40,116 nucleotides of DNA from a phage. Positions within the stretch are counted from its first letter, which is position 1. Every line of letters begins with the position of its first letter. The translations under genes and the position numbers were made by a program. The stretch lies in the NCBI GenBank assembly GCA_011944185.1, contig GCA_011944185.1_3921.1; one strand, 5' to 3'. A model generated the notes under the pieces. That model made no database searches and was not told the DNA's origin. It worked only from the letters and a program-made list of their open reading frames with translations. Of the stretch, positions 1,033 to 1,253 are shown one piece after another.

Positions 1033-1085
1033 GAGGGTTCGATTCCTTCACTCGGCAGATGTCGAGTTGGTGTAATGGTAGCACT
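1033..1085 (+). pseudogene. scrambled tRNA-like fragments: T-arm plus acceptor 3' strand directly abutting acceptor 5' strand plus D-arm
   Basis: GAGGG-TTCGATT-CCTTC then actcggc (1050-1056), 4-nt loop, gtcgagt (1061-1067) forming a perfect 7-bp hairpin, then D-arm-like gtgtaatggtagcac; no anticodon arm can be assembled. Confidence 0.3.
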
Positions 1086-1109
1086 TAAGATGATAAACAA
1101 CGGTCTGGT

Positions 1110-1253
1110 AATTATCTTTGTAGATAAGTTATTAAGCTTACCTGTGAGTATGCGACCACAAAGGGTGAATGGGTAAATTCTAGATTTAAACCCAAAAAGG
1201 CACATCGCTACAGACCTTAAGCAAGTCTGGGTAGCTTATCTACAAAGATAATT
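1110..1253 (+). other. candidate structured RNA/DNA element bounded by a perfect 19-bp inverted repeat (1110-1128 / 1235-1253)
   Basis: attatctttgtagataag at 1111-1128 is the exact reverse complement of cttatctacaaagataat at 1235-1252; encloses about 106 nt between tRNA fragments and tRNA-Lys. Confidence 0.4.

Follow-up and report, generated by a model that had tools for sequence, protein, structure and literature searches.

Ro60 and Y RNAs form particles that have been much studied in animals and in a small number of bacteria, and a question at stake is the purpose of the tRNA-like module found in bacterial Y RNAs. In YrlA, the T and D elements are nearly invariant, the AS hairpin is variable but paired, and the V hairpin, which precedes T, is less conserved (PMC4201824). 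A phage Ro60 together with phage-encoded Y RNA-like RNAs has been described for mycobacteriophages, CcrColossus, Bacillus phage G, and the Thermus phage phiLo, which has Yrl1 and Yrl2 (PMC12135203). For phage Bas63, the protein gp130 has been reported to be Ro60-like and to counter the Ppl defence, and the authors speculated that the tRNA gene region conceals Y RNAs (PhageMaP preprint, PMC11482910). There is thus genetic evidence that a Ro60-like protein of FelixO1-type phages counters a defence system; its RNA partners have previously only been guessed.

The DNA considered here is a stretch of 40,116 nucleotides (NCBI GenBank assembly GCA_011944185.1, contig GCA_011944185.1_3921.1; the whole stretch is called the window) from a FelixO1-like (Felixounavirus) coliphage. 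Its tRNA cluster contains four elements, E1 to E4, that share a stem-motif frame, and a structured RNA, S, that is separate from E4 (Table 1). We consider it likely that E4 is a YrlA-type Y RNA-like non-coding RNA, one of four paralogues that would partner the Ro60-like protein encoded upstream. What is new is a set of short, testable candidates, four per genome, that have an invariant motif and a covarying stem.

Table 1. Elements of the tRNA cluster and their component parts, in window coordinates
Feature	Coordinates	Strand	Basis or remark
Promoter-like site TTGACA-18-TAAAGT	42..71	+	Sequence scan; candidate promoter for the genes from tRNA-Pro to tRNA-Ile, with E1-E4 and S among them
E1, short form, same frame without tRNA-like domain	263..344	+	Between tRNA-Glu and tRNA-Met; R3 43.4 bits
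E2, short form, same frame	430..502	+	Between tRNA-Met and tRNA-Asn; R3 49.9 bits
E3, short form, same frame	886..968	+	Directly upstream of E4; R3 38.0 bits
E4, long-form Y-like RNA: closing stem plus tRNA-mimic domain ("scrambled tRNA")	973..1113	+	MFE fold, conservation, covariance models
Closing stem of E4, 5' strand: UUAC, AGA bulge, AGACCGUU	974..988	+	Pairs with 1099-1111
Family signature U-W-CAGCAA, here UACAGCAA	989..996	+	Predicted single-stranded
CUUA, analogue of the anticodon stem 3' strand	999..1002	+	Pairs with UAAG 1086-1089
V hairpin UUUCU-CCGGUAA-AGAAA	1012..1028	+	Resembles an anticodon arm (GGU) or a class II variable arm
T-arm GAGGG-UUCGAUU-CCUUC, loop UUCGAUU	1033..1049	+	Almost unchanged across 10 Ounavirinae sequences
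Closed acceptor-like hairpin, 7 bp, loop AGAU, no CCA	1050..1067	+	Covariation
D-arm GUGU-AAUGGUA-GCAC	1070..1084	+	Stem invariant; preceding UG corresponds to tRNA positions 8-9
Closing stem of E4, 3' strand: AACGGUCU-G-GUAA	1099..1111	+	Family consensus AAA-[stem]-CUG-N-UAA
S, multibranched RNA closed by an inverted repeat	1106..1257	+	152 nt; abuts E4 and tRNA-Lys (1258)

Structure and conservation of E4

From 5' to 3', E4 consists of the first strand of the closing stem, the invariant UACAGCAA, a hairpin (V), the T-arm, the closed acceptor-like hairpin, the D-arm, and the second strand of the closing stem. In the MFE structure these parts form a five-way junction in which a permuted cloverleaf is enclosed by a stem; the order T-arm, acceptor hairpin, D-arm arises because the acceptor stem of the mimic is closed by a loop. 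A preliminary description of this DNA had noted the tRNA-like pieces and an inverted repeat downstream, all of which lie where it placed them, and had overlooked the hairpin at 1012-1028, the closing stem (974-988/1099-1111), and the three further copies of that stem. The hairpin it called perfect (ACUCGGC at 1050-1056, AGAU at 1057-1060, GUCGAGU at 1061-1067; acceptor pairs G1-C, U2.G, C3-G) has all 7 bp only as RNA, because U1062.G1055 is a G.U pair. The permuted cloverleaf also has a 4-nt variable region and a 7-nt anticodon-like loop, CCGGUAA.

E4 scores 160.6 bits with covariance model R1 and 125.3 bits with R3. Its fold energy is unremarkable (z = -1.4, with 19 of 200 shuffled sequences folding equally well) and makes a weak case when taken alone; the reality of E4 rests on conservation and covariation. 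The element is kept in Felixounavirus, Suspvirus ("Susp-"), and Mooglevirus, and the E4 and S blocks are both conserved, with compensatory changes, in about 240 related phage genomes from three genera, which bears out the earlier proposal of a structured non-coding RNA. When 10 Ounavirinae sequences are aligned over E4, 95.8% of the cells pair, as against 42-51% when the partners are slid. The T- and D-arms are near-invariant across the three genera in these sequences, and the acceptor-like hairpin is 100% paired, with 3 pairs altered on both sides; it occurs as three unrelated sequences, ACUCGGC/GUCGAGU, ACACG/CGUGU, and ACCCUUC/GAAGGGU. (In the wider family alignment the T-arm stem is 98.8% paired, and most members retain the GG of the D-loop.) The helix formed by CUUA and UAAG (999-1002/1086-1089) is 79% paired and is the least conserved of all the helices. 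The V hairpin, which gives a partial Rfam tRNA match of 18.8 bits, is not conserved: a different hairpin is found at that place in Mooglevirus, its loop is shortened to 6 nt in L002 and L003 (fKMPT1 and DaR-2019a), and position 33 of the anticodon-like loop in E4 is a C.

These features bear on the idea that E4 is a circularly permuted gene for tRNA-Thr(GGU). The preliminary description had proposed a permuted or rearranged tRNA, and the order of the parts is indeed a circular permutation of the cloverleaf; the identification as a tRNA gene fails on the C at position 33, the variable hairpin, and the missing CCA. All of the cloverleaf parts are present in permuted order, in the window and its close relatives only, with a 7-bp acceptor and with loop and variable region of the lengths given above, and tRNAscan-SE annotates a 129-nt tRNA-Thr-GGT at the E4 site in ASO1B, a spurious call that is due to the V hairpin. 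Yet the putative anticodon hairpin, with its C33 and 6-nt loops, gives way to an unrelated hairpin in Mooglevirus while the T- and D-arms stay invariant; CCA is absent, unlike in those normal tRNAs of the window that were inspected, which encode it; and the break at positions 26/27 is closed by a long conserved stem that is common to RNAs without a tRNA part. ARAGORN, which handles permuted tmRNA, calls nothing at E4. There is thus only a very slight chance that E4 is such a gene.

It is likewise highly improbable that the locus combines a recombination scar, in which the tail of one tRNA has been fused to the head of the next, with a miniature inverted-repeat mobile element. In tRNA dimers, too, T is followed by D, and YrlA searches are known to pick such dimers up falsely (PMC4201824); R3 likewise picks out the tRNA-Gly/tRNA-Thr junction of the window, at 28.5 bits. 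However, the two acceptor strands of E4 pair and covary, which is unexpected for two different tRNAs; they are separated by a loop of just 4 nt, CCA is absent, and both blocks are fixed in the roughly 240 genomes of three genera. The footprint of recombination that had been suggested earlier is further contradicted by the recurrence of the element beside the same protein gene in distant phages. Since the anticodon-like hairpin is not conserved, E4 is not a tRNA that decodes, not a permuted one, and not the scar of a recombination.

A shared frame and its Ro60-like neighbour

The frame that surrounds the tRNA mimic is present four times in the window and in each relative, compensatory changes included. 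The family module has AG, a stem of 6-8 bp, and U-W-CAGCAA on its 5' side, and AAA, the stem, and CUG on its 3' side. Within the CAGCAA motif, which is found in 4/4 window copies, C, G, and C are each present in 45/45 aligned family members. By contrast with this invariant motif, the stem covaries freely: the outer 4 bp of the closing stem differ among E1-E4 as UGAC/GUCA, UUAC/GUAA, GAGC/GCUC, and UUGC/GCAA, E2 itself changes from UUAC/GUAA to UUGC/GCAA in L001, L005, and L006, and the inner closing stem covaries throughout the whole family. In the family alignment 92.6% of the cells pair, versus about 40% when slid, and 34 of 37 pairs are altered on both sides, although these pair counts are inflated because the family alignments were fitted to the covariance model. 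E1-E4 are four paralogous RNAs of one family, and the combination of an invariant single-stranded CAGCAA with a freely covarying stem is the pattern of a sequence-specific protein site.

A candidate for such a protein is encoded next to the cluster. In close relatives, the gene for a 471-aa DUF2828/DUF7788 protein (PHROG 850, 'RNA-binding protein') ends 69 nt before window position 1; the gene lies outside the window, and its adjacency is taken from these relatives, whose matching flank is 92.6% identical. The AlphaFold2 model of this protein (pLDDT 88.9) has a Ro60 fold. When it is compared with the PDB, the top 12 matches are all Ro60, Rsr, or phage Ro60 over the full length (E 3e-8 to 1.5e-6, TM up to 0.65), followed by matches to vWA domains only; the best match is phiLo Ro60 (9l5y, 9kop), at a sequence identity of 15-16%. 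The relationship is visible by fold comparison only, as the 471-aa protein has no match to Pfam TROVE and phmmer against the PDB sequences returns nothing. The modelled protein is 98% identical to Bas63 gp130, and both are located upstream of tRNA-Pro. (It should be noted that Ppl is countered when gp130 is supplied on its own, either on a plasmid or carried by T7 (PMC11482910), so the Ppl phenotype does not require the E1-E4 RNAs.) More than 2,700 relatives of DUF2828/DUF7788 proteins, most of them from phages, are present in the database searched.

The RNA family and the gene are linked well beyond the close relatives. With R1, E4-like RNAs of full length are detected in DUF2828 contigs of distant phages. 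R3 gives 57 matches at E<0.01, every one of them on the strand of the gene and 0 on the other; 52 of them are located in 31 of the 75 distant loci, and 28 of these 52 lie within 300 nt of the DUF2828 gene. In some relatives the RNA is positioned upstream of the gene. All 75 distant loci were picked for having a DUF2828 gene, and consequently the negative controls are only the opposite strand, the distance to the gene, and phage T5. In the tRNA-rich region of T5 (24 tRNAs) there is no full-length match to the family model, the best partial match scoring 21 bits, and the annotation of the 49 kb of T5 examined includes no Ro60-like gene. R3 was used in place of a regular-expression scan for the frame, which is modestly selective (39 matches on the gene strand versus 12 on the opposite strand). 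Widely differing phages, among them large T4-like and uncultivated ones, have this pairing of RNA and gene.

Two other explanations of the frames deserve consideration at this point. The first holds that they are processing or punctuation spacers of a tRNA operon, which guide RNase P, RNase E, or RNase III and have no dedicated protein, the proximity of the gene being a by-product. In keeping with this, E1, E2, and E3-E4-S each fill one inter-tRNA gap within a single transcription unit, tRNA clusters directly follow many distant DUF2828 genes, one distant family member (L047, 3726-3840) has a tRNA-Thr-like sequence in normal order inside it, and the ~23-bp stem of S is long enough for RNase III. 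Nevertheless, at nine loci the RNA accompanies the gene where the surrounding 4 kb contain no tRNA, the matches cluster at gene ends and not in tRNA arrays, the T5 region with its 24 tRNAs has no such element, the tRNA junctions of the window are mostly 1-7 nt long and element-free, and the motif and stem resemble a protein site. On balance, punctuation is an unlikely explanation.

The second takes E4 to be a stand-alone tRNA decoy that acts against tRNA-targeting defence nucleases or host factors without the Ro60-like protein. The preservation of the T-arm, the D-arm, and a 12-bp acceptor/T minihelix is compatible with a decoy, as is the likeness of the window's V hairpin to an anticodon arm; in addition, it is known that anticodon nucleases can be countered by phage tRNAs (literature cited in PMC11482910). 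But the anticodon-like hairpin, the usual target of such nucleases, is the least conserved part of E4, and a decoy would account neither for E1-E3, which have the frame without the tRNA-like part, nor for the linkage to the gene. We judge a stand-alone decoy to be quite improbable. Taken together, the paralogy, the covariation, and the genetic linkage argue that E1-E4 are probably the RNA partners of the Ro60-like protein.

The S element and a proposed pathway

Downstream of E4, the sequences at 1110-1128 and 1235-1253 were again found to be exact reverse complements over 19 bp, as first described, and with 95% complementarity the repeat is 22 nt long (1110-1131/1232-1253). By our own arithmetic, about 2e-5 perfect 19-nt inverted repeats within 150 nt are to be expected in 40 kb. 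The 1105-1257 sequence folds with z = -5.5, and 0 of 200 shuffled sequences are as stable. S is 153-155 nt long in the three genera, where it exists as two sequence types with a diverged interior. RNAalifold gives 49 pairs, 10 of which have compensatory changes, and a consensus stem of ~23 pairs; one such change is UUGUAG/CUACAA versus UUGCAG/CUGCAA. Comparison of related phages, as the preliminary description had recommended, finds both the E4 and S blocks present and the inverted repeat conserved. A covariance search with the S structure, also recommended there, finds no relatives outside Ounavirinae: the model of S, R2, matches none of the 75 distant loci. E4 and S, which had been treated as one object, are thus adjacent RNAs that differ in phylogenetic range.

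The perfect 19-bp repeat speaks for a mobile mini-element, the other half of the scar explanation. But the window has just one S; every record spanning the region has it at the same site, the full-length matches show no presence/absence polymorphism, and the distant loci lack it. The stem of S has undergone compensatory changes, and its length has been held despite the diverged interior. A miniature inverted-repeat element is accordingly highly improbable. Two other candidates were also set aside: a hammerhead (CCGAUGA...GAC in the type-B version), since the fit of the core is wrong and CCGAUGA...GAC is missing from S in the window, and a retron-like RNA, since tRNA-Lys follows and there is no reverse transcriptase gene. 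The S stem has the form of an RNase III hairpin, that is, a near-perfect duplex of at least about 20 bp in a polycistronic transcript. Tentatively, it may serve as a hairpin for RNase III-type processing or for stabilisation, defining both the 3' end of E4 and the leader of tRNA-Lys.

E1-E4 and S lie in a predicted transcription unit at 42-1491. A second promoter-like site is located at 1507-1535, and no terminator-like sites were found on the + strand between it and the first; a literature search for Felixounavirus transcriptomes gave nothing relevant. We infer the expression, processing, binding, and function of the E RNAs as follows. E1-E4 would be transcribed within a polycistronic tRNA precursor from the 42-71 promoter and released by the tRNA-processing enzymes that cut the adjacent tRNA ends. 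RNase P might also cut E4 between U1060 and G1061, as in M. smegmatis YrlA, because the acceptor-like stem of E4 has 7 bp. The RNAs would then bind the Ro60-like ring protein, the homologue of Bas63 gp130. The closing stem of E4 would carry the conserved protein-binding module, with the tRNA mimic inside it, and E1-E3 would have the same module without the mimic, in a YrlB-like form. In the resulting RNPs, the variable insert, which in E4 is the tRNA mimic, would serve as a tether or decoy for host RNA enzymes.

If binding is confirmed, the concept of Y RNAs would reach a protein family now filed as a 'domain of unknown function', unannotated gaps and spurious tRNA and ORF calls in hundreds of phage genomes would be explained, and a tractable E. 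coli phage system would be available for the role of the tRNA mimic on the Ro60 ring. It is conceivable, although we would not yet count on it, that DUF2828/DUF7788 proteins and U-W-CAGCAA RNAs make up a widespread, unrecognised phage class of Ro60-Y RNA systems, with several interchangeable RNAs per genome, in which the tRNA mimic of the long form tethers or decoys host tRNA or RNA enzymes or defence nucleases and the RNP reprograms RNA decay or counters immunity.

Comparison with described systems

Stable small RNAs are found in the tRNA cluster of T4 as species 1/2 RNAs; the "T4-type" label applied earlier does not suit the window, which is Felixounavirus. In the genes for two-piece tmRNA, and in the permuted tRNA genes of Cyanidioschyzon merolae, the 5' acceptor strand comes after the T-arm and the 3' acceptor strand. 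E4 differs from them in having neither a tag reading frame nor G3.U70, no conserved anticodon loop, and no evident bulge-helix-bulge motif; no tmRNA was found by ARAGORN in the window or by Rfam on 960-1260. A permuted group I self-splicing intron was rejected, as the flanks are short and form a simple stem that is common to RNAs without a tRNA part.

The closest resemblance is to YrlA (RF02553; Chen et al. 2014, PMC4201824). E4 has its elements in the YrlA order, and the YrlA pattern, in which T and D are near-invariant and AS is kept as structure only, is seen in E4 and family-wide. As with YrlA and YrlB, there is a long form, E4, together with shorter forms, E1-E3, that have no tRNA domain. 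M. smegmatis YrlA, which is cut by RNase P, has an acceptor-like stem of 7 bp, as does E4. Further marks of YrlA are association with Ro60/Rsr in vivo and the tRNA modifications pseudouridine 55 and dihydrouridine. YrlA is encoded on the same strand as a nearby Ro60-fold gene (within ~4 kb of a Ro60 orthologue); the neighbour of E4, judged from relatives since the gene lies just outside the window, is placed likewise, but it is a DUF2828/DUF7788 protein and not TROVE. The family also has features of its own. The YrlA motif GNCGAAN0-1G, the presumed Rsr contact, does not occur in the window, which has (U/G)NNCAGAAG and CAGAAG instead, and at that position distant family members have only an A-rich sequence followed by a G; the E family has instead the invariant U-W-CAGCAA on the inner side of the stem. 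The E RNAs are present in four copies in a tRNA operon, whereas YrlA is in the rsr operon. The Rfam YrlA model gives no match to E4 even at E<=10 over 301 nt (960-1260) and none at its gathering threshold (69 bits) in the window or in 16 distant loci; with gathering and permissive thresholds on the window, 960-1260, and the 16 loci, Rfam matches E1-E4 and S only with the partial tRNA.

T5 (NC_005859) has RNA1, RNA2, RNA3, RNAI, RNAIII, and others between its tRNAs, some of them annotated as tRNA-like, a placement similar to that of the E elements. phiLo has a Ro60-fold ring and adjacent small stem-loop RNAs, as is proposed here. Its RNAs were picked by a CGAA motif in an internal bulge (PMC12135203), which is absent from E1-E4, and its binding and PNPase complex were demonstrated by experiment (PMC12135203), while the present system is known from sequence and models. 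For Bas63, the suggestion was that some annotated tRNA genes may be Y RNAs, none being named (PMC11482910); the candidates described here lie instead in unannotated spacers, and in Bas63 they are located under the minus-strand 'hypothetical protein' calls bas63_0137 and bas63_0138, which overlie E4 and S.

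Framed RNAs in the tRNA cluster

The window opens with a plus-strand cluster of 25 tRNA genes, 5.7 kb long, in which the frame NNNC AGA AGACCNN UWCAGCAA ... NNGGUCU G GNNN occurs four times, as the paralogous small RNAs E1 to E4. The outer four pairs of the frame vary from copy to copy with complementarity kept (UGAC/GUCA, UUAC/GUAA, GAGC/GCUC; UUGC/GCAA for E2 in relatives). E4 shares the 429-nt gap between tRNA-Asp and tRNA-Lys with a second structured RNA, the S element.

Features of the tRNA cluster (positions in the window)
Feature	Position	Strand	Remarks
E1	263-344	+	frame, short variable hairpin only
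E2	430-502	+	frame, short variable hairpin only
tRNA-Asp	751-828	+	
E3	886-968	+	frame, short variable hairpin only
E4	973-1113	+	frame enclosing tRNA-like part
S element	1106-1257	+	
tRNA-Lys	1258-1333	+	
Conserved RNA	1542-1739		tmRNA-like message; own promoter-like site at 1507-1535
Odd tRNA-like gene	1740-1822		Rfam tRNA, 31.7 bits
HNH-type endonuclease-like ORF	1836-2183		115 aa, between tRNA genes; CxxC...HH...CxxC motifs by eye

The preliminary description saw tRNA halves in permuted order in E4, and the pieces lie where it put them: T-arm (1033-1049), 3' acceptor strand (1050-1056), loop AGAU, 5' acceptor strand (1061-1067), UG and D-arm (1070-1084). The 7-bp acceptor hairpin pairs throughout, but one pair is G.U, so it is perfect at the RNA level only. 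Two elements had been overlooked: a hairpin at 1012-1028 (5 bp, 7-nt loop) followed by AGGC, which the Rfam tRNA model aligns as anticodon arm and variable loop (18.8 bits), and a stem of 974-988 with 1099-1111 that encloses the entire permuted cloverleaf.

When the E4 region is compared among ten phages of three genera (Felixounavirus, Suspvirus and Mooglevirus), E1-E4 are present in all ten and S in all three genera. The T-arm and D-arm of E4 are invariant, while its acceptor-like hairpin has three unrelated sequences, each of which pairs (ACUCGGC-agau-GUCGAGU, ACACG-uuacgg-CGUGU, ACCCUUC-gccaaaca-GAAGGGU); 95.8% of the cells in the alignment pair, a share that drops to 42-51% if the partners are shifted by 1-3 columns. 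Invariant arms flanking a hairpin that changes and still pairs argue against the suggestion of a recombination footprint. The anticodon-like hairpin is unconserved across the three genera (a 6-nt loop in two phages, a different hairpin in Mooglevirus), which speaks against reading E4 as a permuted tRNA and, together with the pattern of pairing and conservation, excludes a decoding tRNA. Conserved folds with compensatory changes, in both E4 and S, favor the option of a structured ncRNA. Among the window tRNAs, the tRNA-like part of E4 (1011-1057, 1061-1085) is closest to tRNA-Ser(UGA) at 2417-2506, which belongs to class II and has a long variable arm; the likeness is in line with a variable-arm identity of the hairpin at 1012-1028 and gives a hint of where E4 came from in evolution.

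A query of 451 bases around E4 and S matches 252 phage records, almost all FelixO1-like phages of E. coli, Salmonella, Shigella and Citrobacter (190 at 95-99% identity; top match Escherichia phage vB_EcoM-Pr103Blw, 98.9%). E-type RNAs are annotated in none of the records listed for these matches; the positions are left blank there or are occupied by a spurious tRNA-Thr or by small hypothetical ORFs. In phage ASO1B, 1279-1407 (window 928-1056) is a spurious 129-nt tRNAscan-SE 'tRNA-Thr-GGT', tRNA-Thr is also annotated under the REP5-7 matches, and in Bas63 (2949-3223 of the fetched locus) the minus-strand hypothetical CDS bas63_0137 and bas63_0138 overlie E4 and S.

Three other stretches may be mentioned. 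The 69-nt tRNA-Asn/tRNA-Tyr spacer at 588-656, which is just 8-9 nt in Pr103Blw and ASO1B, contains a T-arm-like hairpin, AAGGUGCAAGUCCUU, and is possibly a decayed tRNA. A weak tRNA-like signal just upstream of tRNA-Ser (2323-2397; Rfam tRNA-Sec model, 23 bits, E 0.43; no ARAGORN call) is possibly a further degenerate or unusual tRNA. The tRNA-Thr/tRNA-Ile spacer at 3167-3262 has a good fold (z = -3.3), and a segment of it, ACUGAAGACCGU, is similar to the 5' frame of E1-E4; the spacer has neither CAGCAA nor the 3' GGUCUGG and is undetected by R3, a covariance model of the E4-type family.

The inverted repeat and the RNA genes beyond it

The inverted repeat is as first described, 1235-1253 being the exact reverse complement of 1110-1128, and the duplex reaches 22 nt with one mismatch. 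Treating repeat and tRNA halves as one object does not hold, because S is a separate RNA that directly adjoins both E4 and tRNA-Lys. Compared with shuffled sequences, the enclosed RNA has a far stronger fold (z = -5.5). S is 153-155 nt long in all three genera and exists as two types with strongly diverged interiors, type A in the window and most Felixounaviruses, and type B in some Felixounaviruses and all Susp- and Mooglevirus sequences examined. Ten of the 49 pairs in the consensus fold show compensatory changes (for example, UUGUAG/CUACAA vs UUGCAG/CUGCAA and CAGACC/GGUCUG vs CAAACC/GGUUUG). A covariance model of S finds one copy in the window and nothing in 75 distant loci encoding relatives of the Ro60-like protein discussed below. 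Being single-copy, held in size, compensatory and restricted to this lineage, S is a real structure and not the mobile mini-element that had been considered. The length of its stem would suit RNase III, and an RNase III-type role is our guess on that basis. By eye, its last hairpin (1213-1233; ACAGACC-UUAAGCAA-GUCUGG, or ACAAACC-CUUUAGCAA-GGUUUG in type B) resembles a miniature E frame, with a stem and ..AGCAA, so S might hold a fifth site for the protein proposed to bind the E RNAs.

Farther downstream, the conserved RNA carries at 1587-1622 the message AAAUAAAU GCA AAC GAC AAU GUU UUU CUG GCA GUA GCU UGA UAG (ANDNVFLAVA and two stops), which is retained in all three genera (with GAC>GAU and UGA>UAA) and has a covarying hairpin on its 3' side. 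The Rfam tmRNA model reaches only 16 bits here, on the message part, with no tRNA-like domain, and ARAGORN calls no tmRNA. (In 338 E. coli genomes, usually on a plasmid, there is DNA without annotation that is about 81% identical to positions 1576-1700.) The odd tRNA-like gene, for which ARAGORN makes no call, is without a D-arm, has the anticodon loop CUUCUAA (UCU) and an additional 20 nt ahead of the T-arm, and combines G3.U70 with A73 and CCA, the alanine identity set. ASO1B and one other relative share this version; seven of the relatives examined have a normal tRNA-Arg(UCU) instead. The stretch matching the HNH-like ORF differs or is missing in several relatives.

The Ro60-like gene and the RNA family linked to it

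Just outside the window lies a 1416-nt gene on the same strand, which ends about 166 nt before tRNA-Pro in every relative fetched and whose stop codon, mapped from relatives, is 69 nt before position 1. Pfam assigns its product to DUF2828 and DUF7788, and PHROG to family 850 ('RNA-binding protein'); there is no match among PDB sequences. In a fold search with its AlphaFold2 model (42 homologues, mean pLDDT 88.9), Ro60 proteins take the first twelve places among the PDB matches, over the full length (E 3e-8 to 1.5e-6; sources include Thermus phage phiLo, Xenopus, human and Deinococcus Rsr); the matches ranked below them are isolated vWA domains and nothing else. Bas63 gp130 and the modelled protein share 98% identity, and a preprint describes gp130 as Ro60-like in structure, located upstream of tRNAs and countering the Ppl defence system; that work identified no RNA (PMC11482910). 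Because gp130 by itself is enough for T7 rescue on a ppl host (PMC11482910), the Ppl phenotype does not require the E-type RNAs.

The E-type RNAs are a conserved family in which a covarying stem adjoins a motif of invariant sequence; there are several paralogues per genome, the long form has a tRNA-mimic insert, and the family is tightly linked to the Ro60-fold protein. From more than 2,700 database relatives of the protein, 80 viral contigs encoding it were fetched, 75 of them distant (38-47% protein identity). R1, the covariance model of E4, has full-length matches in 12 of these 75 loci, with the order of elements unchanged and the sequence new in every stem. R3, built from the R1 matches, gives 57 matches at E<0.01, all on the gene strand, with zero on the opposite strand; 52 fall in 31 of the distant loci, the other 44 having none. 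Twenty-eight of the 52 lie within 300 nt of gene ends, where an even spread over the 8-kb flanks would place an estimated 4 or so.

The consensus is UUU..AAG-[6-7 bp]-U-W-CAGCAA, an insert of 14-148 nt, and AAA-[6-7 bp]-CUG-N-UAA, and the C, G and C of CAGCAA each occur in 45/45 sequences. In the family alignment, which is fitted to the model, 92.6% of cells pair, versus about 40% when slid, and 34 of 37 pairs have changed on both sides. The T/acceptor-hairpin/D domain distinguishes the long forms from the short ones, which do not have it. The RNA adjoins the gene in nine loci with no tRNA within 4 kb, which argues that it tracks the Ro60-like gene and not tRNA clusters. Negative controls for this linkage were the opposite strand, the distance to the gene and one phage; the tRNA-rich region of T5 (24 tRNAs plus annotated stable tRNA-like RNAs) gives only partial matches of at most 21 bits.

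In one distant locus (L047, 3726-3840) a frame RNA encloses a tRNA-Thr(UGU)-like sequence in normal, not permuted, order; bona fide tmRNA genes lie a few kb from the Ro60-like gene in two others (L036, 257-707; L031, 8236-8685), and a tRNA cluster is often directly 3' of the gene. These arrangements suggest a recurrent 'RNA island'.

Proposed working and relation to Y RNAs

E1-E4 would be transcribed within the tRNA precursor from a promoter-like site at 42-71, which is followed by no terminator-like site before 1491, and would be released by processing of the flanking tRNAs. The stem/CAGCAA module would then contact the Ro60-like ring, and the insert could tether or decoy other factors, by analogy with the Y RNAs that tether PNPase to Rsr. 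A 7-bp acceptor-like stem stacked on a T-arm is the type of substrate presented by M. smegmatis YrlA, which RNase P cut (PMC4201824); by this analogy, cleavage of E4 between U1060 and G1061 is possible.

Phage Ro60 with Y-like RNAs is already known for canonical TROVE proteins (PMC4201824), as is the Ro60-like fold of gp130 (PMC11482910), and the stable tRNA-like RNAs of T5 are already annotated; our literature search found no description of the U-W-CAGCAA family. [quoted passage not shown] The conservation pattern of E4 agrees with this published one. However, E4 is unmatched by the Rfam YrlA model in a permissive search, it is missing the YrlA motif GNCGAAN0-1G, and its candidate partner, unlike that of YrlA, is not a Pfam TROVE protein. 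E4 is thus best viewed as a variant of the Y RNA kind that lies outside YrlA.
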